DNA from: Dendrobates tinctorius
Lineage: Eukaryota
DNA length: 64,000 bases
NCBI RefSeq assembly: GCF_039654945.1
Contig: NW_027362112.1
Coordinates: forward strand, 372,001-436,000
Reading direction: 5' to 3'
Below, in pieces: positions 7,873 to 52,827 of this stretch. The position numbers and the translations under genes are program-made. The number at the start of each line of letters is the position of its first letter. Within the stretch, counting starts at the first letter, position 1. Under the pieces are notes generated by a model. That model ran no database searches and was not told the DNA's origin. It saw nothing but the letters and a program-made list of their open reading frames with translations.

Positions 7873-8730
7873 TGTTATGAATGAGTCACCGAGGAGAAGA
7901 AAGCAAAACAAGCTAAGCCACAGAAAACCAGAGAGGTTGGTAACTATGCAGATTGCAGATCCCTGATCCTATCCACACAACTAGCAGTAGCCGTGGAGCG
8001 TTCCTTCGGTGAACCTAGACGCTTCGTCACAGCCGGAGGACTAAATAAGCCTAAAGCAAGAAAAGAGGAAAACTAACTGCCCCAGAGCAGACCCCAAAGG
8101 AATAGACAGCCCCCACACATGTATTGACTGTGAAACAAGATGAAGGCACAAACACAGGAAGGAAAATAGGCTGAGCAAACAATGGGGCCCAAACTAACTG
8201 GAAAGGAAAGACACTGTCTGCAATCTGCCAAAAACCCTACAAAAATAATGTCCAACACTTCTGATAACAAAATTAACCCTGAAGTTACTAGACTTCTCCC
8301 ACTATATCAGCACTCTGAAATATTCTGAGACAGAGCAAAAAGAGGCCAATCTAATAAGGGACAAAAAGCAAATTGGCAAATACAGATAAATAAGAGTGGA
8401 AATTCAGCACACCCCCAGCCGGGGCTGGCTGACCACACAAAAAACTGAATAGACCAACAAAATCAAGTGTGAACATTAGCAGAAACACTTAGCTTGAGCT
8501 GACTGGAACAGAGCTGAGAACTAAGACCTGACAAGCCAGAAGGAATCATCAGCAACTGAATAGGGCATCGGCTGTCTTAAATCCAATCTGAGATTCCTGA
8601 GGTCCAATCGTCATCCTCATCAGGTGGCAGATCTCCACTGATTAAATCAGCCTCACTACCTCCTGTTACCACCAGAGGGTGGCTGGAAGGAGGACTCACA
8701 ACTGGTAGACCAGAAAATGAACTCACAACA
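7873..8730 (-). repeat. 3' LTR
   Basis: Direct repeat of 13547-14408; preceded on the minus strand by the PPT AAGGGGGAGGTAC (8731-8743). Confidence 0.95.
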
Positions 8731-8753
8731 GTACCTCCCCCTTGAGGAGGGGG

Positions 8754-9959
8754 TCACCGAACCCTCATCCACGCCACCAGGCCGATCAGGATGGGCCCGT
8801 GAAAAGCACAAACCAATCTATCGGCATGAATATCAGAGGCAGAGACCCAAGAATTATCCTGGCCATAACCCTTCCACTTGACCAAATACTGGAGTCTCCG
8901 TCTAACCAAACGAGAATCCAATATTTTCTCTACCTCATATTCCACATTGCCTTCGACCAACACAGGGTCAAGAGGTGCTGCCATAGGAACCACTGGCTCA
9001 ACAAACCTCTTCAACAGAGATTTGTGAAATACGTTATGGATCTTGAACGTAACTGGAAGAGCCAATCGAAACGAAACAGGATTAAGAATTTCCAAAATCT
9101 TATAAGGACCAATAAATCTTGGCTTAAATTTTGGACATGCAACCTTCATAGGAATATTCTTAGACGACAACCAAACCATATCACCCACTTTAAACCGGGG
9201 ACCAATGGTCCTATGCTGGTTGGAAAATCGCTGGGCCTTTTCCTGAGAGAGTGACAACTTATCCACCACTTGGTCCCATATCTGCTGCATTCTCTCAACC
9301 ACAGTGTCCACACCTGGGCAGGACGAAGATTCCACTTGCCCTGAAGAGAATCGAGGATGAAACCCAAAATTACAGAAAAAGGGTGACATCAAAGTGGCAG
9401 AACTAGCTCTATTGTTCAGCGCAAATTCGGCCAAGGGCAAAAATGAGACCCAATAATCTTGATCAGCAGATATAAAACATCTTAAATAAGACTCCAGGGT
9501 CTGGTTTGTTCTCTCTGTCTGTCCATTGGTCTGGGGATGAAATGCGGAGGAGAAGGATAACTGAATTTCCAGATTGGAACAAAAGGCTTTCCAGAATCTG
9601 GAAACAAACTGGACTCCTCTATCGGACACAATGTTCTCAGGAATCCCGTGTAACCGAACCACCTGTTGTAAAAACAAGGGCACCAACTCAGCAGAAGATG
9701 GCAACTTTGGGAGTGGTACAAGATGGACCATCTTGGAAAATCTATCACAAATCACCCAGATAACAGTCATTCTCTGAGAGACAGGAAGATCAGAAATAAA
9801 ATCCATTGAGATATGGGTCCATGGCCTCCTGGGCACTGGGAGGGGCATCAGCAAACCACTAGAACGAGAACAGGGTTTAGACCGAGAACAAGTCCCACAG
9901 GATTCTACAAAATTCCTGACGTCACGAGATAAGGCAGGCCACCAAAACCGACTCACCAA
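8754..9959 (-). pseudogene. Gypsy integrase plus C-terminal chromodomain (frameshifted relative to RT/RH)
   Basis: WTHISMDFI, IVSDRGVQF, HPQTNGQTER, FIGPYKI, EYEVEKILDSR..QYLVKWKGYG. Confidence 0.95.
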
Positions 9960-11402
9960 AAATACCTGGATGACCAGCCAATGCGGAGCAATGGACGTCA
10001 GACATCACTCTCTTTCTCCACTGGTCAGGAACATACAATTTTCCCGTAGGACAACGCTCAGGTTTATCCTTCTGAAATTCCTCCAGGGCGCGTCTAAAAT
10101 CGGGCGAAATGGCAGAAAGAACTACCCCCTCACCTAGGATGGTAGTAGGCTCAGTCACATTAAGAGAATCCGCAAAGAAACTCCTAGAAAAGGCGTCTGC
10201 CTTAACATTCTTAGTGCCCGGAAGAAAAGAGACCACAATATTAAAACGCGTGAAAAACAATGCCCATCTAGCCTGTCTAGGATTCAAGCGTTTGGCCGAC
10301 TCCAGATAAATCAGATTCTTGTGGTCAGTGAGGACCACAACTTGATGTCTAGCTCCCTCCAACCAATGTCTCCACTCTTCAAATGCCCATTTCATGGCCA
10401 ACAAATCCTGATTCCCCACATCATAGTTGCGTTCAGATGGGGAGAACTTTCGAGAAAAGAAGGCACAGGGATTCATCTTAGAAGTCACAGGGTCTTTTTG
10501 GGACAACACAGCTCCTGCACCAATCTCAGAAGCAACTACCTCCATTTGAAATGGAAGTGAGACATCAGGTTGTCGTAAAACTGGAGCTGAAGTAAATCTC
10601 TGCTTAAGCTCCTGAAATGCTGAGACAGCCTCAGGAGACCAACTCAGCACATCAGTGCCCTTCTTGGTCAGATCAGTCAGTTGTTTGACAATACCAGAAA
10701 AATTACCTATAAATTTACGATAGAAATTAGAAAAACCCCAAAACTTCTGGAGATCCTTCAAAGAAGTGGGCTGAACCCAATCATAAATGGCCAGTAGCTT
10801 GGCCGGGTCCATTTCAATAGTCGATGGAAATAAGATAAATCCCAAAAATGAAATCCTCTGTACACCAAAGAGGCGCTTAGATCCCTTAACAAACAGGGAA
10901 TTCTCCCTCAAAATCCGGAACACAGTCCGGACATGTTCCACATGAGAATCCCAATCACTAGAAAAGATCAAAATATCATCCAGATAGATGATCAAAAACT
11001 TATCCACAAAGTCACGGAAAATATCATTCATAAAGGACTGGAAGACAGAAGGGGCATTAGTGAGCCCAAAAGGCATCACCAGGTACTCAAAATGTCCCTC
11101 CGGAGTATTAAACACCATCTTCCATTCATCCCCATGCTTAATGCGGATAAGATTATACGCCCCCCTGAGGTCAAGCTTGGTAAACCAGCAGGCACCTTTA
11201 ACTCTGGAGAATAGATCAGACATCAGAGGTAACGGATACTGATATTTAACCGTCATCTTATTAAGGGAACGATAGTCAATACACGGTCTTAATGAACCAT
11301 CTTTCTTGGCCACAAAAAAAAACCCAGCACCTAAAGGGGATGAGGATGGTCTAATATGACCCTTCTCCAATGACTCCTTAATATAGGATCGCATAGCATC
11401 AT
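9922..11402 (-). pseudogene. Gypsy reverse transcriptase and RNase H
   Basis: LRPCIDYR, KLDLRGAY, MPFGLTNAP, YLDDILI, TDHKNL, AGHPG. Confidence 0.96.
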
Positions 11403-11410
11403 GTTCGGGT

Positions 11411-12042
11411 CAGGGCTGTGGAGTCGGTCAGCCAAACCTGCGACTCCGACTCCTCAATTTCCCTTACTCCGACTCCACGACTCCGACTCCCACACATATT
11501 GCTTATATTTAAGTGAAAAATGTATTGTAGTACAATGTGAACCTCAGACATTTAATCATTTTTATGATCCAATAATCAAGATATTTAGATAGAACAGAAT
11601 ATATATTGGTGTACTACCCGGTTTTCATTCTTTTTGGTACAGATACGATATGGATAGACAGATATGGATAAATGGATATATAGATAGAGCAGATTTCTAA
11701 TCTGCTTTTGCTATTGAAAACATTATCTATGAGCTCAAAAACCTTTCAGGTGATGCAGTTTTTTAAAAAGCTGATCTGCTTTTGCAGCTGAAAAACGTAT
11801 CCTCAAAAAACACAGGAAAAACGCTGTGTGTGAATGTAGCCTTAGATCAGGAATAGAACAGCCATTTATAGGACATTTCATAACTTTCCCAAACTCCTAT
11901 GAAAAAATATTCAGCACATCCTGCATTGAATTACTGTACCCAATTTATTATATATTTTAGGAGTCGGTCCATTTTATACCGACTCCAACTCCGACTCCAC
12001 CAAAATGAGCACCGACTCCACGACTCCGACTCCACAGCCCTG
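11411..12042. mobile_element. hAT-type non-autonomous element nested in Gypsy pol
   Basis: 17-bp TIR CAGGGCTGTGGAGTCGG; perfect 8-bp TSD GTTCGGGT (11403-11410 and 12043-12050); subterminal GACTCC repeats. Confidence 0.92.
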
Positions 12043-12050
12043 GTTCGGGT

Positions 12051-13399
12051 ACTAAGTTGAAAAGCCGACCCTTGGGAAATTTACACCCAGGCATCAACTC
12101 AATTGCACAGTCATAACTCCTATGAGGAGGCAAAGACGCAGACTTACTCTCACTAAATACATCAGAGAAATCAGCCAAATAGTCAGGAACATCATGAGAC
12201 TGAGGAGAGGTGGAGAAAACAGGAGCGTCACCAAGAGCACACCGACAACCCCAACTCACCACAGACCCAGATTTCTAATCCAAAATTGGGTTATGAGTTT
12301 GCAACCAGGGAAAACACAGAACAAGAGTATCATGCAAATTATGCAACACCAGAAATTTACAATTTTCTTGGTGGTCTGGGGCGACCCGCATTACCACCTG
12401 GGTCCAAAACTGAGGTTTATTCTCCGCCAAAGGAGTGGCATCAATACCCCTCAAAGGGATAGGCGTCCGCAGAGATGTCATAGGAAACCCACAACATTTA
12501 GCAAAGTCCAAATCCATCAGATTCAACGCTGCTCCTGAATCCACAAAAGCCTTAGTGGAAAACGTGGACAAGGAGCAGATCAGAGTAATCGCCAAAAGAA
12601 ACTTAGGCTGTACACTGCCCACAGCAAATGTGTGTGCAAAACGTTTCTCTCATTTAGGGCAGACAGAAATAGTATGAGAGGCGTCTCCACAGAAAAAACA
12701 CAGCTTATTACGCCTTCTAAACTCCTGACGTTGCGCCCTAGACAAAACTATCACATTGCATAGGTTCAGACATTTGTCCAAAAGGTGGCAGCCCCTCCCG
12801 TGTAGTTTTACGTTCACGTAAACGCCGATCAACTTGAATGGCTAATGCCATAGAATCATCCAGACCAGAGGGAACAGGAAATCCCACCATAGTATCTTTT
12901 ACGGTCTATGATAAACCTTTCCGAAAGAGAGCTGCCAAAGCACTATCATTCCATGTAGTAAGGACCGCCCACTTTCGGAATTTTTGACAGTATAACTCTG
13001 CAGAATCCTGACCCAGGTTTAACGCCAATGGGGTTCTCTCAGCCTGATCAACAGCATTAGGTTCATCATACAACAACCCCAAGGCTTGAAAAAATGCATC
13101 CACATTAGTCAGAATAGGATCTCCGGGTGTCAGAGAAAACGCCCAATCCTGGGGATCGCCGCGCAGCAAGGAGATGACAATTTTAACATGCTGCGCAGAG
13201 CTCCTCGATGAGTTAGGCTTCAAGGCCAGAAATAATTTACAATTATTCTTAAAAGTCAGAAATTTAGACCGATCCCTAGAAAACATCAGGAGTAGGGATC
13301 TTAGGTTCAAGCAGCATGTGACTGAATGAGGTAGGTGGAAATTCCCCACACTTCAGCAGCCAGCTGCTCCACACGATCAGACAGTTGCTTAATCTCCAT
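12051..13399 (-). pseudogene. Gypsy gag (capsid, CCHC knuckle) and aspartic protease, with stops and frameshifts
   Basis: ISLLRGDPQDWA, CFFCGDASHTISVCP, AFVDSGA; ATG at 13399. Confidence 0.9.
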
Positions 13400-13546
13400 T
13401 AGGAAAAAGAAAATCCTCCTACAGCCCCAGAGAAAGAGGAAAAAATCTAGAAAAAAAAAAAAAAAAAATTGTGACACTTTTCTTTCTTTTTAACAACTTT
13501 TTCCTGCTTTTGAGTACCCTAGAATCCGCGGTATGGCTGGTGATTC

Positions 13547-14408
13547 TGTTATGAGTCACCGAGAAGAAAAAAACAAAACCAGCTAAGTCACAAAAAACCA
13601 AAGAGGTTGGTAACTATGCAGATTGCAGATCCCTGATCTTACCACACAACTAGCAGTAGCCGTGGAGCGTACCTACGATGTTCCTAGACGCCTCGTCACG
13701 GCCGGAGGACTAAATAAGCCTAAAGCAAGAAAAGGGAAAACTAGCTGCCCCAGAGCAGACCCCAAAGGAATAGATAGCCCCCAACATGTATTGATGGTGA
13801 AACAAGATGAAGGCACAAACACAGGCAGGAAAATAGGCTGAGCAAACGATGGGGCCCAAACTAAATAGAAAGGATAGGAAAGGAAAGACACTGTCTGCAT
13901 TCTGCCAAAATCCCTACAAATATAATGTCCAACACTTCTGATAACAAAATTAACCCTGAAGTCACTAGACTTCTCCCACTATATCAGCACTCTGAAATAT
14001 TCTGAGACAGAGCAAAATGAAGGCCAATCTAATAAGGGACAAAAAGCAAATTGGCAAATACAGATAAATAAGAGTGGAAATTCAGCACAGCCCCAGCCGG
14101 GGCTGGCTGACCACACAAAAAACTGAATAGACCAACAAAATCAAGTGTGAACATTAGCAGAGAAACTTAGCTTTAGATGACTGGAACAGAGCTGAAAACC
14201 AAGAGCTGACAAGCCAGAAGGAATCACCAGCAACTGAATAGGGCGTCGGCTGTCTTAAATCCAGTCTGAGATTCCTGAGGTCCAATCGTCATCCTTATCA
14301 AGTGGCAGATCTCCACTGATTAAATCAGCCTCACTACCTCCTGTTAGCACCAGAGGGAGCCTGGAAGGAGAACTCACAACTGGTGAACCAGAAAATGAAC
14401 TCACAACA
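13547..14408 (-). repeat. 5' LTR
   Basis: TGTTGTGAG...CATAACA on the minus strand; repeat of 7873-8730. Confidence 0.95.
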
Positions 14409-15855
14409 CACCGCCATACATCTCCTCATCTCTGTCTACCACCTACCCGTCCTCTCCACAGTGCTGCACCGCCCTACATCTCCTCATCTGTCTACCACCT
14501 ACCCATCCTCTCCACAGTGCTGCACTGCCCTACATCTCCTCCTCATCTCTGTCTATCACCTACCCATCCTCTCCACAGTGCTGCACCGCCCTACATCTCA
14601 TCTGTCTATCACCTACCCATCCTCTCCACAGTGCTGCACTGCCTTACATCTCCTCATCTGTCTACCGCCTACCCATCCTCCACAGTGCTGCACTGCCCTA
14701 CATCTCATCTGTCTACCGCCTACCCATCCTCTCCACAGTGCTGCACCGCCCTACATCTCCTCATCTGTCTACCGCCTACCCATCCTCCACAGTGCTGCAC
14801 TGCCCTACATCTCCTCATCTGTCTACCGCCTACCCATCCTCTCCACAGTGCTGCACTGCCCTACATTCCTCATCTGTCTACCACCTACCCGTCCTCTCCA
14901 CAGTGCTGCACTGCCCTACATCTCATCTCTGTCTACCACCTACCCATCCTCTCCAGTGCTGCACTGCCCTACATCTCCTCATCTCTGTCTACCACCTACC
15001 CATCCTCAACACAGTGCTGCACCGCCCTACATCTCCTCATCTGTTTACCACCTACCCGTCCTCTCCACAGTGCTGCACCGCCCTACATCTCCTCCTCATC
15101 TCTGTCTACCACCTACCCATCCTCTCCACAGTGCTGCACCACCCTACATCTCATCTGTCTACCACCTACCCATCCTCTCCACAGTGCTGCACTGCCCTAC
15201 ATCTCCTCCTCATCTGTCTATCACCTACCCATCCTCTCCTCAGTGCTGCACCGCCCTACATCTCCTCCTCATCTGTCTACCGCCTACCCATTCTCTCCAC
15301 AGTGCTGCACTGCTCCAACATCTCCTCATCTCTGTCTACCACCTACCCATCCACCCCACAGTGCTGCACTGCTCTACATCTCCTCATCTGTCTACCGCCT
15401 ACCCATCCTCTCCACAGTGCTGCACTGCCCTACATCTCATCTGTCTACCACCTACCCGTCCTCTCCACAGTGCTGCACTGCCCTACATCTCTCCTCATCT
15501 CTGTCTACCACCTACCCATCCTCAACACAGTGCTGCACCGCCCTACATCTCCTCCTCATCTGTCTACCACCTACCCATCCTCTCCACAGTGCTGCACCGC
15601 CCTACATCTCCTCATCTGTCTACCACCTACCCATCCTCCCCACAGTGCTGCACTGCCCTACATCTCATCTCTGTCTACCCCCTACCCGTCCTCTCCACAG
15701 TGCTGCACCACCCTACATCTCCTCATCTGTCTACCACCTACCCGTCCTCTCCACAGTGCTGCACCACCCTACATCTCCTCCTCATCTCTGTCTACCACCT
15801 ACCCGTCCTCTCCACAGTGCTGCACCACCCTACATCTCATCTCTACCGTCCTCTC
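14409..15855. repeat. Right arm of the ~56-bp C-rich minisatellite
   Basis: Same unit as 4517-7872, resuming in register after the LTR. Confidence 0.95.
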
Positions 15856-22282: not shown

Positions 22283-23370
22283 CCGTCGTGTACTGCCCCC
22301 CCAGTCACTGCCAGCACCCGCCGCCGGGTACTGCCCCCTCAGTCACTGCCAGCACTCGCCGCCGTCTACTGCCCCCCCCAGTCACTGCCAGCACCCGCCG
22401 TCGTGTACTGCCCCCTCAGTCACTGCCAGCACTCGCCGCCGTCTACTGCCCCCCCAGTCACTGCCAGCACCCGCCGCCGTGTACTGCCCCCCAGTCACTG
22501 CCAGCACCCGCCGCCGGGTACTGCCCCCTCAGTCACTGCCAGCACTCGCCGCCGTCTACTGCCCCCCCAGTCACTGCCAGCACCCGCCGTCGTGTACTGA
22601 CCCCCCAGTCACTGCCAGCACCCGCCGTGTACTGCCCCCCCAGTCACTGCCAGCACCCGCCGTGTACTGCCCCCTCAGTCATTGCCAGCACACGCCGCCG
22701 TGTACTGCCCCCAGTCACTGCCAGCACACGCCGCCGTGTACTGCCCCCCCAGTCACTGTCAGCACACGCCGCCGTGTACTGCCCCCCCAGTCACTGTCAG
22801 CACCCGCCGCCGTGTACTGCCCCCCCAGTCACTGTCAGCACCCGCCGCCGTGTACTGCCCCCCCCAGTCACTGCCAGCACCCGCCGCCGTGTACTGCCCC
22901 CCCAGTCACTGCCAGCACCCGCCGCCGTGTACTGCCCCCCCAGTCACTGCCAGCACCCGCCGCCGTGTACTGCCCCCCCAGTCACTGCCAGCACCCGCCG
23001 CCGTGTACTGCCCCCCCAGTCACTGCCAGCACCCGCCGCCGTGTACTGCCCCCCCAGTCACTGCCAGCACCCGCCGCCGTGTACTGCCCCCCCAGTCACT
23101 GCCAGCACCCGCCGCCGTGTACTGCCCCCCCAGTCACTGCCAGCACCCGCCGCCGTGTACTGCCCCCGTCACTGCCAGCACGCGCCGCCGGGTACTGCCT
23201 CCCAGTCACTGTCAGCACCTGCCGTCGTGTACTGCCCCCCCAGTCACTGCCAGCACCCGCCGCCGTGTACTGCCCCCCCCAGTCACTGCCAGCACCCGCC
23301 GCCATGTACTGCCCCCCCAGTCACTGTCAGCACCCGTCGCCGGGTACTGCCCCCCCAGTCACTGTCAGCA
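22283..23370. repeat. ~38-bp C-rich minisatellite in the probable USB1 3' UTR (GTGTACTGCCCCCCCAGTCACTGCCAGCACCCGCCGCC)
   Basis: Tandem units read directly. Confidence 0.95.
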
Positions 23371-23384
23371 TGGCCATTAATTGG

Positions 23385-23449
23385 AATAAAAAACACCTGA
23401 GACAGCCGACGCCCCGCAGTCACCAATTGGCTAGTCGAGCCTCAATAAA
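23385..23449 (+). terminator. Candidate USB1 polyadenylation signals, AATAAA at 23385-23390 and 23444-23449
   Basis: First canonical hexamers downstream of the stop codon. Confidence 0.55.
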
Positions 23450-23456
23450 CACACCG

Positions 23457-26400
23457 ACAGCTCAGCACGCCCCTGTACTGTACTGGACGGCCATGCTGTC
23501 AATCACAGTACTGACAGCTCAGCACGCCCCTGAATCAGACTGGATGGCCATGCTGTCAATCACAGTACTGACAGCTCAGCACGCCCCTGTACTGGACTGC
23601 CATGCTGTCAATCACAGTACTGACAGCTCAGCACGCTCCTGTACTGGACGGCCATGATGTCAATCACAGTACTGACAGCTCAGCACGCCCCTGTACTGGA
23701 CTGGATGGCCATGCTGTCAATCACAGTACTGACAGCTCAGCACGCCCCTGTACTGGACTGGACGGCCATGCTGTCAATCACTGTACTGGCAGCTCAGCAC
23801 GCCCCTGTACTGGACTGGATGGCCGAGCTGTCAATCACAGTACTGAGAGCTCAGCATGCCCCTGTACTGGACTGGACGGCCATGCTGTCAATCACAGTAC
23901 TGACAGCTCAGCACGCCCCTGTACTGGACTGGATGGCCGTGATGTCAATCACAGTACTGACTGCTCAGCGCGCTCCTGTACTGGACTGCCATGATGTCAA
24001 TCACAGTACTGACAGCTCAGCACGCCCATGGACTGGATGGCCGAGATGTCAATCACAGTACTGACAGCTCAGCACGGCCCTGTACTGGACGGCCATGCTG
24101 TCAATCACAGTACTGACAGCTCAGCACGCCCCTGTACTGGACTGGACGGCCATGCTGTCAATCACAGTACTGGCAGCTCAGCACGCCCCTGTACTGGACT
24201 GGATGGCCAAGCTGTCAATCACAGTACTGAGAGCTCAGCATGCCCCTGGACTGGACGGCCATGCTGTCAATCACAGTACTGAGAGCTCAGCACGGCCCTG
24301 TACTGGACGGCCATGCTGTCAATCACAGTACTGACAGCTCAGCACGCCCCTGTACTGGACTGGATGGCCGTGATGTCAATCACAGTACTGACTGCTCAGC
24401 ACGCTCCTGTACTGGACTGGATGGCCGTGATGTCAATCACAGTACTGACTGCTCAGCACGCTCCTGTACTGGACTGCCATGATGTCAATCACAGTACTGA
24501 CAGCTCAGCACGCCCCTGGACTGGATGGCCGAGCTGTCAATCACAGTACTGACAGCTCAGCACGCCCCTGTACTGGACTGGATGGCCGTGATGTCAATCA
24601 CAGTACTGACTGCTCAGCACGCTCCTGTACTGGACTGCCATGATGTCAATCACAGTACTGACAGCTCAGCACGCCCCTGGACTGGATGGCCGAGCTGTCA
24701 ATCACAGTACTGACAGCTCAGCACGCCCCTGTACTGGACGGCCATGCTGTCAATCACAGTACTGACAGCCATGCTGTAAATCACAGTACTGACAGCTCAG
24801 CACGCCCCTGTACTGGACTGGACGGCCATGCTGTCAATCAGTACTGGCAGCTCAGCACGCCCCTGTACTGGACTGGATGGCCAAGCTGTCAATCACAGTA
24901 CTGAGAGCTCAGCATGCCCCTGTACTGGACTGGACGGCCATGCTGTCAATCACAGTACTGAGAGCTCAGCACTGCCCTGTACTGGACGGCCATGCTGTCA
25001 ATCACAGTACTGACAGCTCAGCATGCCCCTGTACTGGACTGGATGGCCGTGATGTCAATCACAGTACTGACTGCTCAGCACGCTCCTGTACTGGACTGCC
25101 ATGATGTCAATCACAGTACTGACTGCTCAGCACGCTCCTGTACTGGACTGCCATGATGTCAATCACAGTACTGACAGCTCAGCACGCCCCTGGACTGGAT
25201 GGTCGAGCTGTCAATCACAGTACTTACAGCTCAGCACGCCACTGGACGGCCATGCTGTCAATCACAGTACTGACAGCTCAGCACGGCCCTGTACTGGACT
25301 GGATGGCCATGCTGTCAATCACAGTACTGACAGCTCAGCACGGCCCTGTACTGGACGGCCATGCTGTCAATCACAGTACTGACAGCTCAGCACGCCACTG
25401 GACTGGACTGGATGGCCGAGCTGTCAATCACAGTACTGGCAGCTCAGCACGGCCCTGTACTGGACTGGATGGCCATGCTGTCAATCACAGTACTGACAGC
25501 TCAGCACGGCCCTGTACTGGACGGCCATGCTGTCAATCACAGTACTGACAGCTCAGCACGCCCCTGGACTGGACTGGATGGCCATGCTGTCAATCACAGT
25601 ACTGACAGCTCAGCACGCCCCTGTACTGGATGGCCATGCTGTCAATCACAGTACTGACAGCTCGGCACGCCCCTGTACTGGACGGCCATGCTGTCAATCA
25701 CAGTACTGACAGCTCAGCACGCCCCTGTACTGGACTGGATGGCCATGCTGTCAATCACAGTACTGACAGCTCAGCACGCTCCTGCACTGGACTGGACGGC
25801 CATGCTGTCAATCACAGTACTGACAGCTCAGCACGCTCCTGCACTGGACTGGACGGCCATGCTGTCAATCACAGTACTGACAGCTCAGCACGCCACTGGA
25901 CTGGACGGCCATGCTGTGAATCACAGTACTGACAGCTCAGCACGGCCCTGTACTGGACGGCCATGCTGTCAATCACAGCACTGACAGGTGAGCACGCCCC
26001 TGTACTGGACTGGATGGCCGTGATGTCAATCACAGTACTGACAGCTCAGCACGCTCCTGTACTGGACTGCCATGATGTCAATCACAGTACTGACAGCTCA
26101 GCACGCCCCTGGACTGGACTGGATGGCCGTGATGTCAATCACAGTACTGACAGCTCAGCACGCCCCTGTACTGGATGGCCATGCTGTCAATCACAGTACT
26201 GACAGCTCGGCACGCCCCTGTACTGGACGGCCATGCTGTCAATCACAGTACTGACAGCTCAGCACGCCCCTGTACTGGACTGGATGGCCATGCTGTCAAT
26301 CACAGTACTGACAGCTCAGCACGCCACTGGACTGGACGGCCATGCTGTGAATCACAGTACTGACAGCTCAGCACGGCCCTGTACTGGACGGCCATGCTGT

Positions 26401-29400
26401 CAATCACAGCACTGACAGGTGAGCACGCCCCTGTACTGGACTGGATGGCCGTGATGTCAATCACAGTACTGACAGCTCAGCACGCTCCTGTACTGGACTG
26501 CCATGATGTCAATCACAGTACTGACAGCTCAGCACGCCCCTGGACTGGACTGCCATGATGTCAATCACAGTACTGACAGCTCAGCACGCCCCTGTACCGG
26601 ACAGGACGGCCATGCTGTCAATCACAGTACTGACAGCTCAGCACGCCACTGGACTGGACGGCCATGCTGTCAATCACAGTACTGAGAGCTCAGCACGCCC
26701 CTGTACTGGACTGGACGGCCATGCTGTCAATCACAGTACTGACAGCTCAGCACGCCCCTGTACTGGACGGCCATGATGTCAATCACAGTGCTGACAGCTC
26801 AGCACGCCCCTGTACTGGACTGCCATGATATCAATCACAGTACTGACAGCTCAGCACGCCCCTGTACTGGACGGCCATGATATCAATCACAGTACTGACA
26901 GCTCAGCACGCCCCTGTACTGGACGGCCATGCTGTCAATCACAGTACTGACAGCTCAGCACGCCCCTGTAGTGGACTGGATGGCCGAGCTGTCAATCACA
27001 GTACTGACAGCTCTGCACGCCCCTGTACTGGACTGGACGGCCATGCTGTCAATCACAGCACTGACAGGTGAGCACGCCCCTGTACTGGACTGGATGGCCG
27101 TGATGTCAATCACAGTACTGACAGCTCAGCACGCTCCTGTACTGGACTGCCATGATGTCAATCACAGTACTGACAGCTCAGCACGCCCCTGGTCTGGACT
27201 GCCATGATGTCAATCACAGTACTGACAGCTCAGCACGCCCCTGGACTGGACTGCCATGATGTCAATCACAGTACTGACAGCTCAGCACGCCCCTGGACTG
27301 GACTGCCATGATGTCAATCACAGTACTGACAGCTCAGCACGCCCCTGTACCGGACAGGACGGCCATGCTGTCAATCACAGAACTGACAGCTCAGCACGCC
27401 CCTGGACTGGACGGCCATGATGTCAATCACAGTACTGACAGCTCAGCACGCCACTGGACTGGACGGCCATGATGTCAATCACAGTACTGAGAGCTCAGCA
27501 CACCCCTGTACTGGACTGGACGGCCATGATGTCAATCACAGCACTGACAGCTCAGCACGCCCCTGGACTGGACTGCCATGATGTCAATCACAGCACTGAC
27601 AGCTCAGCACGCCCCTGGACTGGACGGCCATGATGTCAATCACAGTACTGACAGCTCAGCACGCCACTGGACTGGACGGCCATGCTGTCAATCACAGTAC
27701 TGAGAGCTCAGCACGCCCCTGTACTGGACGGCCATGATGTCAATCACAGTACTGACAGCTCAGCACGCCCCTGTACTGGACGGCCATGATGTCAATCACA
27801 GTACTGACAGCTCAGCACGCCCCTGTACTGGACTGGACGGCCATGCTGTCAATCACAGTACTGAGAGCTCAGCATGCCCCTGTACTGGACGGCCATGCTG
27901 TCAATCACAGTACTGACAGCTCAGCACGCCACTGGACTGGACGGCCATGATGTCAATCACAGTACTGACAGCTCAGCACGCCCCTGTACTGGACGGCCAT
28001 GATGTCAATCACAGTACTGACAGCTCAGCACGCCCCTGTACTGGACGGCCATGATATCAATCACAGTATTGACAGCTCAGCACGCCCCTGTACTGGACTG
28101 GACGGCCATGCTGTCAATCACAGTACTGAGAGCTCAGCATGCCCCTGTACTGGACGGCCATGCTGTCAATCACAGTACTGACAGCTCAGCACGCCCCTGT
28201 ACTGGACTGGATGGCCATGCTGTCAATCACAGTACTGACAGCTCAGCACGCCCCTGTACTGGATGGCCATGCTGTCAATCACAGTACTGGCAGCTCAGCA
28301 CGCCCCTGTAGTGGACTGGATGGCCGAGCTGTCAATCACAGTACTGACTGCTCAGCACGCCCCTGTACTGGACTGGATGGCCATGCTGTCAATCACAGTA
28401 CTGACAGCTCAGCACGCCCCTGTACTGGACTGGACGGCCATGCTGTCAATCACAGTACTGACAGCTCAGCACGCCCCTGTACTGGACTGGACGGCCATGC
28501 TGTCAATCACAGTACTGACAGCTCAGCATGCCCCTGTACTGGACTGGACGGCCATGCTGTCAATCACAGTACTGACAGCTCAGCACGCTCCTGTACTGGA
28601 CGGCCATGATGTCAATCACAGTACTGACAGCTCAGCACGCCCCTGTACTGGACTGGATGGCCATGCTGTCAATCACAGTACTGACAGCTCAGCACGCCCC
28701 TGTACTGGACTGGACGGCCATGCTGTCAATCACAGTACTGACAGCTCAGCACGCCCCTGTACTGGACTGGACGGCCATGCTGTCAATCACAGTACTGGCA
28801 TCTCAGCACGCCCCTGTACTGGACTGGATGGCCGAGCTGTCAATCACAGTACTGACTGCTCAGCACGCCCCTGTACTGGACTGGATGGCCATGCTGTCAA
28901 TCACAGTACTGGCAGCTCAGCACGCCCCTGTACTGGACTGGACGGCCATGCTGTCAATCACAGTACTGGCATCTCAGCACGCCCCTGTACTGGACTGGAC
29001 GGCCATGCTGTCAATCACAGTACTGACAGCTCAGCACGCCCCTGTACTGGACTGGATGGCCATGCTGTCAATCACAGTACTGGCAGCTCAGCACGCCCCT
29101 GTACTGGACTGGATGGCCGAGCTGTCAATCACAGTACTGACTGCTCAGCACGCCCCTGTACTGGACTGGATGGCCATGCTGTCAATCACAGTACTGACAG
29201 CTCAGCACGCCCCTGTACTGGACTGGACGGCCATGCTGTCAATCACAGTACTGACAGCTCAGCATGCCCCTGTACTGGACTGGACGGCCATGCTGTCAAT
29301 CACAGTACTGACAGCTCAGCACGCCCCTGTACTGGACTGGACGGCCATGCTGTCAATCACAGTACTGACAGCTCAGCACGCCCCTGTACTGGACTGGACG

Positions 29401-32400
29401 GCCATGCTGTCAATCACAGTACTGACAGCTCAGCATGCCCCTGTACTGGACTGGACGGCCATGCTGTCAATCACAGTACTGACAGCTCAGCACGCTCCTG
29501 TACTGGACGGCCATGATGTCAATCACAGTACTGACAGCTCAGCACGCCCCTGTACTGGACTGGATGGCCATGCTGTCAATCACAGTACTGACAGCTCAGC
29601 ACGCCCCTGTACTGGACGGCCATGCTGTCAATCACAGTACTGACAGCTCAGCACGCCCCTGTACTGGACTGGACGGCCATGCTGTCAATCACAGTACTGG
29701 CATCTCAGCACGCCCCTGTACTGGACTGGATGGCCGAGCTGTCAATCACAGTACTGAGAGCTCAGCATGCCCCTGTACTGGACTGGACGGCCATGCTGTC
29801 AATCACAGTACTGACAGCTCAGCACGCCCCTGGACTGGACGGCCATGCTGTCAATCACAGTACTGACAGCTCAGCACGCCCCTGGACTGGACGGCCATGC
29901 TGTCAATCACAGTACTGACAGCTCAGCACGCTCCTGTACTGGACGGCCATGCTGTCAATCACAGTACTGACAGCTCAGCATGCCCCTGTACTGGACTGGA
30001 TGGCCATGCTGTCAATCACAGTACTGACAGCTCAGCACGGCCCTGTACTGGACGGCCATGCTGTCAATCACAGTACTGACAGCTCAGCACGCCCCTGTAC
30101 TGGACTGCCATGCTGTCAATCACAGTACTGACAGCTCAGCACGCTCCTGTACTGGACGGCCATGATGTCAATCGCAGTACTGACAGCTCAGCACGCCCCT
30201 GTACTGGACTGGATGGCCATGCTGTCAATCACAGTACTGAGAGCTCAGCACGCCCCTGTACTGGACGGCCATGATGTCAATCACAGTACTGACAGCTCAG
30301 CACGCCCCTGTACTGGACTGGATGGCCATGCTGTCAATCACAGTACTGACAGCTCAGCACGCCCCTGTACTGGACTGGATGGCCATGCTGTCAATCACAG
30401 TACTGACAGCTCAGCACGCCCCTGTACTGGACGGCCATGCTGTCAATCACAGTACTGACAGCTCAGCACGCCCCTGTACTGGACTGGACGGCCATGCTGT
30501 CAATCACAGTACTGACAGCTCAGCACGCCCCTGGACTGGACGGCCATGCTGTCAATCACAGTACTGACAGCTCAGCACGCTCCTGTACTGGACGGCCATG
30601 CTGTCAATCACAGTACTGACAGCTCAGCATGCCCCTGTACTGGACTGGATGGCCATGCTGTCAATCACAGTACTGACAGCTCAGCACGGCCCTGTACTGG
30701 ACGGCCATGCTGTCAATCACAGTACTGACAGCTCAGCACGCCCCTGTACTGGACTGCCATGCTGTCAATCACAGTACTGACAGCTCAGCACGCTCCTGTA
30801 CTGGACGGCCATGATGTCAATCACAGTACTGACAGCTCAGCACGCCCCTGTACTGGACTGGATGGCCATGCTGTCAATCACAGTACTGAGAGCTCAGCAC
30901 GCCCCTGTACTGGACGGCCATGATGTCAATCACAGTACTGACAGCTCAGCACGCCCCTGTACTGGACTGGATGGCCATGCTGTCAATCACAGTACTGACA
31001 GCTCAGCACGCCCCTGGACTGGATGGCCATGCTGTCAATCACAGTACTGACAGCTCAGCACGCCCCTGTACTGGACTGGATGGCCATGCTGTCAATCACA
31101 GTACTGACAGCTCAGCACGCCCCTGTACTGGACGGCCATGCTGTCAATCACAGTACTGACAGCTCAGCACGCCCCTGTACTGGACTGGACGGCCATGCTG
31201 TCAATCACAGTACTGACAGCTCAGCACGCCCCTGTACTGGACTGGATGGCCATGCTGTCAATCACAGTACTGACAGCTCAGCACGCCCCTGTACTGGATG
31301 GCCATGCTGTCAATCACAGTACTGACAGCTCAGCACGCTCCTGTACTGGACTGGACGGCCATGCTGTCAATCACAGTACTGACAGCTCAGCACGCCACTG
31401 GACTGGATGGCCATGCTGTCAATCACAGTACTGACAGCTCAGCACGCCCCTGTACTGGACGGCCATGCTGTCAATCACAGTACTGACAGCTCAGCACGCC
31501 CCTGTACTGGACGGCCATGCTGTCAATCACAGTACTGACAGCTCAGCACGCCCCTGTACTGGACTGGATGGCCATGCTGTCAATCACAGTACTGACAGCT
31601 CAGCACGCCCCTGTACTGGATGGCCATGCTGTCAATCACAGTACTGACAGCTCAGCACGCTCCTGTACTGGACGGCCATGCTGTCAATCACAGTACTGAC
31701 AGCTCAGCACGCCCCTGTACTGGACTGGATGGCCGAGCTGTCAATCACAGTACTGACAGCTCAGCACGCCCCTGTACTGGACTGGATGGCCATGCTGTCA
31801 ATCACAGTACTGACAGCTCAGCACGGCCCTGTACTGGACGGCCATGCTGTCAATCACAGTACTGACAGCTCAGCACGCCCCTGTACTGGACTGGATGGCC
31901 ATGCTGTCAATCACAGTACTGACAGCTCAGCACGCCCCTGTACTGGATGGCCATGCTGTCAATCACAGTACTGACAGCTCAGCACGCTCCTGTACTGGAC
32001 TGGACGGCCATGCTGTCAATCACAGTACTGACAGCTCAGCACGCCACTGGACTGGATGGCCATGCTGTCAATCACAGTACTGACAGCTCAGCACGCCCCT
32101 GTACTGGACGGCCATGCTGTCAATCACAGTACTGACAGCTCAGCACGCCCCTGTACTGGACGGCCATGCTGTCAATCACAGTACTGACAGCTCAGCACGC
32201 CCCTGTACTGGACTGGATGGCCATGCTGTCAATCACAGTACTGACAGCTCAGCACGCCCCTGTACTGGATGGCCATGCTGTCAATCACAGTACTGACAGC
32301 TCAGCACGCTCCTGTACTGGACGGCCATGCTGTCAATCACAGTACTGACAGCTCAGCACGCCCCTGTACTGGATGGCCATGCTGTCAATCACAGTACTGA

Positions 32401-33511
32401 CAGCTCAGCACGCCCCTGTAATGGATGGCCATGCTGTCAATCACAGTACTGACAGCTCAGCACGCCCCTGTACTGGACGGCCATGCTGTCAATCACAGTA
32501 CTGACAGCTCAGCATGCCACTGGACTGGATGGCCATGCTGTCAATCACAGTACTGACAGCTCAGCACGCCCCTGTACTGGACTGGACGGCCATGCTGTCA
32601 ATCACAGTACTGACATCTCAGCACGCCACTGGACTGGACGGCCATGCTGTGAATCACAGTACTGACAGCTCAGCACGGCCCTGTACTGGACGGCCATGCT
32701 GTCAATCACAGCACTGACAGGTGAGCACGCCCCTGTACTGGACTGGATGGCCGTGATGTCAATCACAGTACTGACAGCTCAGCACGCCCCTGTACTGGAC
32801 GGCCATGATGTCAATCACAGTACTGACAGCTCAGCACGCCCCTGTACCGGACAGGACGGCCATGCTGTCAATCACAGTACTGACAGCTCAGCACGCCCCT
32901 GTACCGGACAGGACGGCCATGCTGTCAATCACAGTACTGACAGCTCAGCACGCCCCTGTACTGGACGGCCATGATGTCAATCACAGTACTGACAGCTCAG
33001 CACGCCCCTGTACTGGACGGCCATGCTGTCAATCACAGTACTGACAGCTCAGCACGGCCCTGTACTGGACGGCCATGCTGTCAATCACAGCACTGACAGG
33101 TGAGCACGCCCCTGTACTGGACTGGATGGCCGTGATGTCAATCACAGTACTGACAGCTCAGCACGCCCCTGTACTGGACGGCCATGATGTCAATCACAGT
33201 ACTGACAGCTCAGCACGCCCCTGTACCGGACAGGACGGCCATGCTGTCAATCACAGTACTGACAGCTCAGCACGCCCCTGTACCGGACAGGACGGCCATG
33301 CTGTCAATCACAGTACTGACAGCTCAGCACGCCCCTGTACTGGACGGCCATGATGTCAATCACAGTACTGACAGCTCAGCACGCCCCTGTACTGGACGGC
33401 CATGCTGTGAATCACAGTACTGACAGCTCAGCACGGCCCTGTACTGGACGGCCATGCTGTCAATCACAGCACTGACAGCTCAGCACGCCCCTGGACTGGA
33501 CGGCCATGCTG
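23457..33511. repeat. 10-kb 52/57-bp minisatellite between USB1 and SETD6 (GCCATGCTGTCAATCACAGTACTGACAGCTCAGCACGCCCCTGTACTGGA[CTGGA]CG)
   Basis: About 185 units, estimated from length divided by period. Confidence 0.97.
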
Positions 33512-34212
33512 CCACTAACTGCATCCCAGTCACCCTGAGGGTTGGAACTGTGACAGTGTCCCTTCTTCTGGGGGGGGGGGGGGGGGGGGCAGCGAACTCC
33601 CAGGAAATTTTAGATGGAAGGCCCTAACCGATCAGCCTTCGCATCTCGAGCAGGGAGCCGCGATCTCTCCTCTGGTCCGTATCCCCTCCAGTGGATGAGG
33701 TACTGGAGGGAATCACAGGCCCTCCGAGAATCCACCACCCTCTGAACCTCGTACTCTGGGCCACCATCTACTGAAATCGGAGGTGGTGGGGATGAGGGAG
33801 ACAATGCAGGAGGGACATACTCCTTTAATAGGGATTTATGGAATACGTCAGGGATGTGAAGGATGGCGGAAGCTGTAAATGCCACAGGATTGACCACCTC
33901 TGGGATCTCATATGGACCAATACACTTTGAACCCAACTTCGACGACGACACTTTAAGTTTAATATTCGTAGACAACCAAACCTTATCCCCGGTGTTGACA
34001 GCAGGACCCCCGACCGTCTGTCGTCCTTTTGTGTTTGAATCTGAGCAGCCCCAATATTCTTTTGAAGCTCCCTCCAGACCTCCCCAAGTCTCTGCACGGC
34101 GACCTCCACACCTCAGGGCAGTCAGAACTGATCCTAGAAAATGCGCCAAAATGGGGATGAAAGCCATAATTACAGAAGAATGGTGAGGTTCCGGTAGCGG
34201 CGGTGACATCAC
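33512..34212 (-). mobile_element. Chromovirus Gypsy relic: integrase C-terminus, chromodomain, PPT and start of a 3' LTR
   Basis: ORF 33610-34212 with GDKVWLST, IGPYEI, IPDVFHKSLLK, EYEVQRVVDSR..QYLIHWRGYG; minus strand AGAAGAAGGG-ACAC then TGTCACA at 33555. Confidence 0.88.
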
Positions 34213-34325
34213 CGCTCTCCAGATATCAGGTATGTTGCAATCAGATGTTTCTCGGCGAGGTGCTTGGGGCCATTTGGATTCCTTGTGGCAGTGGGGTCTC
34301 CTGCAGTCTCTCTGCTCATTGAAGT

Positions 34326-34640
34326 CTATGGAGGGATTGCCGTCAGCTCCAGGAGTTGGTGTAGTATCCGCTTCTGTCCATACCGCACGTGGAGGGAGTA
34401 CCGCTCCCTGCGGCTGAGCTCTTTGTACGCGGCACTGTCGTCCAGTATAGCCTGGTCGCTGCGCAGGTCGGTGGCGTATGCCTTGACAGCGAGTTCTGCG
34501 GTTCTATGGAGGAGTCTGCGCCAGGATGGGGGCAGTCTTGAGAGCTCCTGGTTATTTAGCGTCCCATCCTCTTCATCATCATCCTCCCACCCTTCATTGT
34601 CCTTATAGTCTACAAACTCCTCCGGAGACATGCACAGAAG
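34326..34640 (-). CDS. SETD6: SETD6 last coding exon (9)
   Basis: LLCMSPEEF...YATDLRSDQ...VRYGQKRILHQLLELT; cttccag acceptor; TAG stop. Confidence 0.95.
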   Translation of the reverse strand, partial: LLCMSPEEFVDYKDNEGWEDDDEEDGTLNNQELSRLPPSWRRLLHRTAELAVKAYATDLRSDQAILDDSAAYKELSRRERYSLHVRYGQKRILHQLLELTAIPP

Positions 34641-34727
34641 CTGGAAGAGAGGACAGAGGCAGCGGGGGTCACAGGTGGGGCATTAGACCACCTGTCCATA
34701 AGGCGGGGAGGGGATATTCTGACTCAC

Positions 34728-34870
34728 CTTCACACATGTCCTCAGCTCATCCTCTGTCAATGCTCCATCACAGCCGAACACAAAAGCTCCCTCCTCCCGG
34801 ACCACGTCCATGTGACGGAGGAAGGTCCAGCGCTCCCGGACCCGCGCTCCCTGCTCCTCTGACTCTGCCC
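34728..34870 (-). CDS. SETD6: SETD6 exon 8
   Basis: ERWTFLRHMDVVREEGAFVFG; 143 bp; gtgagt donor. Confidence 0.94.
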
Positions 34871-34932
34871 CTAGAGGTAGAGACACCATGACACGTCCAG
34901 CATAGCAGAGTAACCCTGCCTGCAGCACTTAC

Positions 34933-35113
34933 CCAGCAGGGCAGCCTCCTGGAGGGTCGGCATGGGGATTTCGACCGTCTCGTAGATGTTGTTGGGGTGC
35001 TGCTCGGAGAAGCCGTACATGTGCAGCAGCTGCCAGTTTCCCATTTCTCCATAAGTGTTGAAGATCTCCTGTCCTGCCATCACCGCCCGTGTGGTCACCA
35101 TGCGCAAACACTC
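34933..35113 (-). CDS. SETD6: SETD6 exon 7
   Basis: ECLRMV...[20 protein letters not shown]; 181 bp; gtaagt donor. Confidence 0.96.
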
Positions 35114-35185
35114 CTGTCACAAGAGACGGAAGCTCTCAGAATGGTCCATGGTGGCCCCACCAAGACGACGGCCACAGAAACCCAC

Positions 35186-35312
35186 CGGTGTAAACTCCAA
35201 GTGAGCGTTGTGTTGCGCGACGTGATTCAGTAAATCGGCCACTGGAACCATCATTGGGGGGAGGGTGTCCTTCCCACAATCCTCCTCATCCTCCTCCAGC
35301 GGCTCCTGGAAA
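35186..35312 (-). CDS. SETD6: SETD6 exon 6
   Basis: FQEPLEE...[18 protein letters not shown] (SET NH motif). Confidence 0.95.
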
Positions 35313-35520
35313 CTGTGGTGTAACATCCAAGAAGATGATCTGCACAGCCACTATGCCCAGGCCTCAAAGGGCGGATGACGGGGAGAGCCAGTCACTCCTC
35401 CAGAAAGCAGCTCACAAGGAGAGCAGTCTACTTCCCGACAGATCCCTCTGCGCGCGGCCGCTCACGCCTGTATCGGTGCCTCTGCGCGTGGCCTTAGCCT
35501 CCTAAAATGTTATCTGTGTG

Positions 35521-51697: not shown

Positions 51698-52827
51698 GTG
51701 TGAAGAAACCAACTGTGGGAGCAATAATAAGAAAATGGAAGACATACAAGACCACAGATAATCTCCCTCCCTCTGGGGCTCCACACAAGATCTCACCCCG
51801 TGGGGTCAAAATGATCACAAGAACAGTGAGCAAAAATCCCAGAACCACACGGGGGACCTAGTGAATGACCGGCATAGAGGTGGGACCACCATAACAAAGG
51901 CTGCCATCAGTAACACACTACGCCGCCAGGGACTCAGATCCTGCAGTGTCACACATGTCCCCCTGCTTAAGCAAGTACATGTCCAGGCCCGTCTGCCGTT
52001 TGCTAGAGAGCATTTGGATGATCCAGAAGAGTATTGGGAGAATGTCATATGGTCTGATGAAACCAAAGTAGAACTGTCTGGTAGAAACAAAACTCGTCGT
52101 GTTTGGAGGAGACAGAATGCTGAGCTGCATCCAACAAACACCATACCTACTGTAAAGCATGGGGGTGGCAACCTCATGCCTGGGGGCTGTTTCTCTGCAA
52201 AGAGACCAGGCTGACTCATTCGTGTAATGAAAGAATGAATGGGGCCATGTACCGTGAGATTTTGAGTGCAAACCTCCTTCCATCAGCAAGGGCATTGAAG
52301 ATGAAATGTGGATGGGTCTTTCATCATGATAATGATCCCAAGCACACCGATAGGGCAGGGAAAGAGTGGCTTCGTAAGAAGAATATGAAGGTCCTGGAGT
52401 GGCCCAGCCAGTCTCCAGATCTCAACCTCATAGAAAACCTTTGGAGGGAGTTGAAAGTCCGTGTTGCCCAGCGACAGGTCCAAAACATCACCGCTTTAGA
52501 GGAGATCTGCATGGAGGAATGGGCCAACATACCACCAACAGTGTGCGCCAACCTTGTGAAGACTCAGAAAACGTCTGACCTCTGTCATTGCCAACAAAGG
52601 ATAGATAACAAAATACTGAGATGAACTTTTGTTAATGACCAAATACTTATTTTCCACCATAATTTGCAAAATAAATCTTCCCATATCAGACAAGGTGATT
52701 TTCTGGATTTTTCTCATTGTGACTCTCATAGTTGTGGTCGACCTATGAGGTCAGTTACAGGCCGCTCTCATCTTTACAAGGGGGAGAACTTGCACGATTG
52801 GGGGCGACTAAAGACTTTTCCCTACTG
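51698..52827 (+). mobile_element. 5'-truncated Tc1/mariner transposon with disrupted DD34E transposase
   Basis: [35 protein letters not shown]; right end ...CTACTG followed by TA; inner direct repeat near 52640-52660. Confidence 0.93.

Follow-up and report, generated by a model that had tools for sequence, protein, structure and literature searches.

How a minisatellite of 10 kb came to lie directly behind the SETD6 gene of Dendrobates tinctorius is the question raised by this locus, in which the remnant of a retrotransposon integrase is situated between the gene and the array. The window, meaning the whole stretch of 64,000 nucleotides that was analysed (NW_027362112.1, positions 372,001 to 436,000, in a genome of 6.36 Gb), contains the features listed in Table 1. 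The original prediction, that the array was born inside the U3 region of a chromovirus LTR, is supported by 45 of 56 related LTR starts, which carry two units at the same offset, and by a far flank on which the LTR resumes in register. Very likely the array arose by local growth of the two-copy repeat of the U3 region, after insertion of the element.

Table 1. Features at the SETD6-proximal end of the array, in the array and beyond it, in window positions.
Feature	Position	Strand	Evidence or remark
SETD6 3' exons (35316-35185, 35112-34932, 34869-34728, last from 34640)	33813..35316	-	human SETD6 (3qxy), E 2e-26
SETD6 stop codon	34328-34326	-	
Gypsy chromovirus internal tail, 5'-truncated (integrase end)	33556..34197	-	similarity to relatives, domain search
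SH3 domain of integrase tail	~33990-33814	-	
Chromodomain of integrase tail	~33753-33664	-	
ATTAAA signals within integrase tail	33963 and 33829	-	
20-base C run ahead of the purine tract	33570..33589	-	mixed G/C stretch in relatives
Polypurine tract	33560..33569	-	position matches that in relatives
3' LTR start: TG terminus and first 42 bp of U3	33514..33555	-	39-40 of 43 bases as in best relatives
Minisatellite of ~185 units, mosaic of both family U3 units	23455..33513	-	
Penultimate unit, sole unit retaining the family unit-2 variant (TCTGATTCAG)	23501..23557	-	
Distal U3 remnant, 88 bp, with decayed third module (CCAAT at 23430)	23367..23454	-	
38-bp minisatellite in place of TATA-like element, R and U5	22283..23370	-	

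On the minus strand, the chromodomain reading frame is followed, as originally described, by a purine tract (33569-33560), the bases ACAC (33559-33556) and the TG of an LTR at 33555. From the TG to the beginning of the first unit, at 33513, the distance is 42 bp, where about 45 bp had been given. The frame (33610-34503) encodes an SH3_Tf2-1 domain (E 4e-8) and, at the integrase C terminus, a Chromo domain (PF00385, E 5e-6) that scores above cut-off. A genome search with positions 33500-34210 as the query gave 3,132 candidates, 40 of which were scored; all 39 non-self matches are 81-84% identical to the integrase tail, and 36 of them continue into the LTR. The integrase tail of the window is 87.5% identical to 28 relatives, compared to 89.3% identity of these relatives among themselves, which implies that the insertion is old. 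The copy is truncated at its 5' end and has no 5' LTR, CA end or target duplication. A high-copy piece of 31 bp lies at 34203-34233, between the SETD6 stop codon and the integrase remnant.

The last exon of SETD6 continues into the integrase remnant, and spliced contigs that contain it are present in three of four sequencing runs, from three studies. These contigs, which cannot fix the ends of transcripts, end at 33821, 33813 and 33900 (one of the three runs is guessed to be RNA and two are unlabelled), and about 300 bp separate these ends from the first units of the array. There are thus hints that the integrase remnant forms the 3' untranslated region of SETD6. A scan of 23 reading frames of the window for other genes yielded only two Tc1-like transposase pieces, which are broken and located at 51762-52624.

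The LTRs of the family do not part from this locus after about 33512, where divergence together with absence of the unit would have spoken against the prediction: in all 29 non-self loci that were fetched, two of which overlap as one locus, the purine tract leads into the same beginning of the LTR, and the unit is present, in full or in part, at an unchanged offset. Of 56 different LTR starts, 45 have two units, three have one and one has three, the unit number of the remaining seven being unparsable, and LTRs that appear intact exist with one, two, three, four and five units. Two relatives (L101, L109) possess paired LTRs around gag, RT/RNase H and integrase in the order of Gypsy elements, with identities between the paired LTRs of 94% over 234 bp and 89% over 434 bp, respectively. 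The LTRs begin with TG, end with CA, follow a purine tract, are associated with 5-bp target duplications and measure 472-557 bp in those 17, of 56, whose end was matched. Both of the solo LTRs that were read for target duplications have duplications of 5 bp, and these enclose 5 and 41 units. An exact 26-base word of U3 occurs 266 times in the genome, which is a lower bound on the number of copies. Repeated LTR-containing segments are also found 1.1-2.5 kb apart (L018/L022 on C4; L049-L051 with L058 on C181), and such closely spaced segments constitute a second route to tandem DNA.

Assignment of the array to U3 is supported by the geometry of self-priming. Following 88 LTR ends there is a primer site complementary to a 10-mer internal to the LTR (reversed control, 0), in a search pattern designed from one example that gives sequence evidence of self-priming, and Tf1/sushi chromoviruses are described as priming with their own 5' end (bioRxiv 10.1101/2022.12.06.519325). 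The 10-mer follows a TATA-like element at a distance of 31 nt in 18 of the 18 LTRs (of 56) in which both were matched, and from its sequence it likely marks the start of R. Since the array lies upstream of the TATA-like element and of this predicted start site, it belongs to U3, a region in which tandem repeats are described as common among retroviruses (PMC3601003).

The element at 7874-14410, to which the junction had been likened under the name of an intact element, shows a junction of this kind, yet is neither intact nor of this family: its LTRs lack significant similarity and the unit motif, and its gag, RT and integrase are in separate short frames. Near 11410-12045 it is interrupted by an insert of 0.63 kb that is bounded by terminal inverted repeats, has a target duplication of 8 bp and is taken to be hAT-like. 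The LTRs of this second family are 93% identical to each other in the window and also have a self-priming match. The family is found inside minisatellite arrays at three places (7874-14410 of the window, L085 and L070), with 6-bp target duplications at two of the three, and possibly prefers minisatellite arrays as insertion sites.

A tandem-repeat scan delimits the 10-kb array at 23456-33501, with 184.5 copies. Among 180 parsed units, which fall into 71 types, 93 are of 52 bp and 82 are of 57 bp. The array contains 132 perfect copies of the decamer TGATTGACAG and 122 of GGGGCGTG, and TGATTGACA is kept in 176 of its approximately 185 units. In the relatives, a CTC head together with CCAAT and one extra A is usual for the first unit (15 of 21 parsed), and the second unit, in the close subfamily, usually has a CAT head and CCAGT without the extra A (12 of 17 parsed). 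The array is a mosaic of the two, in which the marks of unit 2 dominate (151, versus 0 for the extra A of unit 1), the tail of unit 1 is general, the head of unit 1 is found in ten units and the core of unit 2 in one. CCAAT is absent from the array units, none of the 82 parsed units of 57 bp holding the composite of decamer and CCAAT, and both copies of CCAAT at the locus are in the distal flank. A block of nine units (483 bp) is repeated exactly within the array, compared to a maximum of four units in 200 shuffles. The commonest 57-bp unit aligned to a real LTR of the family with a score of 94, the maximum of 500 shuffles being 24; this score, together with the continuation of the relatives' matches into the LTR, indicates that the likeness of array and LTR is not due to chance. 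All 56 genomic matches of a 34-base word from the commonest units are inside this array. The word satellite therefore overstated the case: this variant is a minisatellite of a single locus, and the longest array seen measures 10 kb, short of the many loci or very long arrays of a satellite.

The distal end of the LTR, which had been reported as unidentified, is partly present at 23454-23367, the LTR having lost only R, U5 and the TATA-like element. These 88 bp correspond to the sequence that follows unit 2 in 27 of 29 family loci (best E 2e-25) and are matched in 49 of 56 LTR starts, the best match being identical at 77 of 86 bases. Because LTR sequence is in register on both sides, the array is nested inside the LTR, and with a unit homologous to that LTR it qualifies as an LTR-derived minisatellite. 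Homology to the LTR ends just ahead of the family's TATA-like element, at four bases (TGCT) that are common to the LTR and to the adjacent 38-bp array. From 23370 to 16000, the search beyond the 38-bp array detected neither R/U5 nor any other remainder of the LTR. An LTR origin of the 38-bp unit was not accepted, as 10 and 39 of 500 shuffles reached its score; a word of the 38-bp array is private to the locus, with eight matches.

Instability is a general property of the U3 repeat of these LTRs, which has also expanded in many further LTR copies. Including that of the window, 25 arrays of 3.8-184.5 units were tabulated, the next largest having 115, 41, 37 and 29 units, and with three further arrays (48, 21 and 8 units) there are at least 27 other loci with 4-115 units; the arrays were found with unit queries in DNA searches that score about 40 candidates each, beside pattern searches listed up to the first 100 hits, and they are a sample rather than a census. 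Several tabulated arrays belong to sister LTR subfamilies. Of the 25, an LTR start flanks 17 on the left and an LTR tail flanks 19 on the right; both are present at 13 and at least one at 23. Identity of units is mostly 0.89-0.98 within arrays and 0.61-0.88 between arrays, except for a pair on C40, in a comparison that left out two arrays (0 and 1 units parsed) and in which the between-array identities of two arrays cut in another phase are lowered. The pair on C40 (L074 and L076) is a duplicated locus, about 95% identical, with arrays of 15.8 and 14.1 units. The array of 115 units (6.6 kb; L113-L114, C8:72.01-72.02 Mb) belongs to a sister subfamily, has the LTR tail on its right and is situated in repeat-poor DNA.

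Tandem repeats make up 64% of the window and 98% and 40% of the two 10-kb flanks, compared to a mean of 10% at 59 loci around related LTRs. In repeat density the window stands out, unlike the locus of the 115-unit array. A general hot-spot model was unsupported by a comparison of 24 arrays with 28 control LTR loci (tandem-repeat cover, p 0.41; GC, p 0.06; distance to contig end, p 0.36), in which the unit filter missed one array (L132) and flagged a putative repeat in one control (L161). About 15 unrelated GC-rich minisatellite arrays surround a gene with very short introns, both in the window as a whole and at L111.

The decamer is described as the main motif bound by Prep in the zebrafish blastula, near CCAAT boxes of NF-Y (PMC6023610; the proximity also in bioRxiv 10.1101/720102). 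The DECA-CCAAT composite is given the geometry GAnnGAC-11 bp-CCAAT (bioRxiv 10.64898/2026.02.16.706105), with the same spacing of 11 bp in PMC7793273 and, by another counting convention, 10 bp in a review (PMC11802806). Within the opening 300 bases of these 56 LTRs, all 17 pairs of decamer and CCAAT within 30 nt are separated by exactly 11 bp, and the intact composite is kept in only 15 of these 56 aged LTRs. Throughout the genome, a perfect decamer and CCAAT occur at 11 bp in 1,948 sites (reversed control, 1), which are copies of few ancestors and not independent events, and at one base more in 164 sites. Inspection by eye of 100 listed composite sites found LTR-like spacers in about nine-tenths, and three odd sites that were fetched consisted of one related to the LTR and two in other repeats. 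The ascription of transcription factor motifs to the unit is supported, by a PBX/PREP decamer in the unit and a CCAAT at the canonical distance in the family, while the term enhancer was an extrapolation from motifs. The U3 repeat of the family is predicted, with good probability, to be a TALE/NF-Y enhancer. With 132 decamers and no CCAAT in its units, the array of the window offers at most half of the composite. CCAGT is already the usual form of unit 2 in the close subfamily, and the notion that large arrays always lose CCAAT was rejected, as the array of 41 units holds 26 composites.

A different minisatellite, with a unit of 57-58 bp, also repeats TGATTGACAG once per unit, with 22 copies at L116 (C21:41.33 Mb) and five at L117 (C6:15.90 Mb), and has no obvious likeness to the LTR unit apart from the decamer. 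At least two other dispersed repeats (L119, L120; one-base-off sites) have the decamer and CCAAT at or beside the canonical spacing.

A larger reading of these motifs, doubtful as a whole, is that a self-priming Gypsy clade whose U3 was assembled from TALE/NF-Y composites in tandem seeded most of the approximately 1,900 perfect sites and continues to spawn homotypic clusters bound by PBX/PREP, and that the array of the window tunes SETD6 or its neighbours. Clusters of tens to more than 100 TALE sites would then function as length-variable enhancers or sinks in early embryos, and the composite would be a mark of enhancers at genome activation.

The steps by which the locus may have reached its present form are as follows. 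A self-priming chromovirus would have inserted immediately downstream of SETD6, in the orientation of the gene; its 5' part would have been lost, and the integrase tail would have joined the 3' untranslated region of SETD6, possibly supplying ATTAAA. Exchanges between unit 1 and unit 2 would have produced a hybrid unit of 57 bp, from which a 5-bp internal repeat would have allowed the 52-bp form to arise, and duplications of multi-unit blocks would have raised the number of copies to about 185. Deletion at the four-base microhomology would finally have fused the U3 remnant with the neighbouring 38-bp array. Slippage, conversion and unequal exchange after insertion are the likely means of expansion, a mechanism deduced from the outcome. 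The founder may have carried more than two units, since this copy has lost its 5' LTR, from which the unit number at insertion would have been read.

The array is likely a neutral by-product of this growth. That it was kept by selection, its 132 PBX/PREP decamers acting as a putative clustered enhancer or protein sink for SETD6 or its neighbours, is unlikely: retention of TGATTGACA in 176 units and of the full decamer in 132, a position about 300 bp behind the ends of spliced SETD6 contigs, and binding of Prep to this motif as its principal one in the blastula of zebrafish (PMC6023610) agree with selection, but concerted copying by itself preserves motifs, the CCAAT partner is missing from all 82 parsed 57-bp units, and other tandem repeats make up about 57% of the remaining window, so that expansion needs no selection. 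There is a slim chance that copy number was largely gained in active elements, by template jumps of reverse transcription, and was passed on by transposition, for which intact-looking LTRs with one to five units and the six arrays of one sister subfamily, with units 0.79-0.93 identical, can be cited. The closest subfamily, however, has two units, the 34-base word is private to this array, the C40 pair of loci has arrays of 15.8 and 14.1 units, a difference of about two, and so has changed in place, and a U3 of 10 kb should be hard to carry through replication.

The reverse order of events, in which a host minisatellite came first and the retrotransposon captured its unit or inserted beside an existing array, is largely refuted and retains hardly any credibility. 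It would suit a region rich in arrays and the insertion of the other LTR family into arrays (7874-14410, L085, L070), but beyond the array the LTR continues in register, the U3 of the family itself includes a decayed third module, every array consists of a variant of its own (with the identities given above, the C40 pair excepted), and solo LTRs with target duplications enclose arrays. It is also very improbable that the origin is correct and the length of 10 kb inflated or distorted by assembly; the length comes from one assembly, and the sequencing runs were available as contigs, but the 71 distinct unit types are arranged in ordered, diverged blocks, and units of the array type are also present in contigs from other studies. 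Growth in place after insertion, from the two-copy repeat of U3, is accordingly the preferred reading.

The locus is an unusually complete record of the birth of a tandem array from a transposon, with both flanks, a relict unit, two-copy relatives and 27 parallel expansions. The series of sizes amounts to a natural experiment on the growth of short transposon repeats, for which no regional predictor was found. A seed repeat with the exact spacing of a conserved enhancer code of the early embryo suggests how the elements are transcribed in the germline or embryo, and the elements may have spread TALE/NF-Y composite sites throughout the genome.

In its chromodomain integrase, its Gypsy order of domains and its primer site, which is complementary to the 5' end of the element itself, the family resembles the Tf1/sushi chromoviruses as described (bioRxiv 10.1101/2022.12.06.519325), a group to which these features provisionally assign it. 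Its U3 modules have the decamer and the spacing of the DECA-CCAAT composite, which is reported to be bound by PBX/PREP, NF-Y and Sp2 (bioRxiv 10.64898/2026.02.16.706105; PMC6023610; PMC7793273); the composite is known from promoters and enhancers of mammalian and zebrafish hosts, whereas here it is borne by a retrotransposon and binding is predicted. No link of the composite to Gypsy LTRs was found in a search of literature accessible in part, which does not prove absence.

Minisatellites and satellites born from LTRs are already known, and the array of the window is a very well preserved further case. Recognition of the mouse minisatellites Ms6-hm and Hm-2 within MaLR LTRs is reportedly to be credited to Kelly in 1994. 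Like these two, which are described as residing in MaLR LTRs (PMC6947457; PMC9659126), the array of the window is a single-locus tandem array born inside the LTR of a vertebrate retroelement, but its host is a Gypsy chromovirus, its unit of 52-58 bp pre-existed as a two-copy module of U3, and within one genome the copy number grades from 1 to 185 units. The satellites of Lathyrus, which are described as originating from tandem arrays in LTR retrotransposons (Vondrak et al., PMC7004042), share with this family short arrays on dispersed retrotransposons and occasional expansion; these are plant elements whose expansion is tied to pericentromeres according to that account, whereas the array of the window is in U3 and locus-specific, and regional predictors of expansion were not detected. 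RPCS of Ctenomys, Sobo of Solanum and MALREP of the swamp eel are multi-locus satellites with longer monomers. Their monomers, like the unit described here, are related to LTRs, MALREP being listed as derived from a Gypsy LTR (PMC9659126), and unlike in these satellites, as far as that source describes them, the site of birth is preserved here with both LTR flanks.
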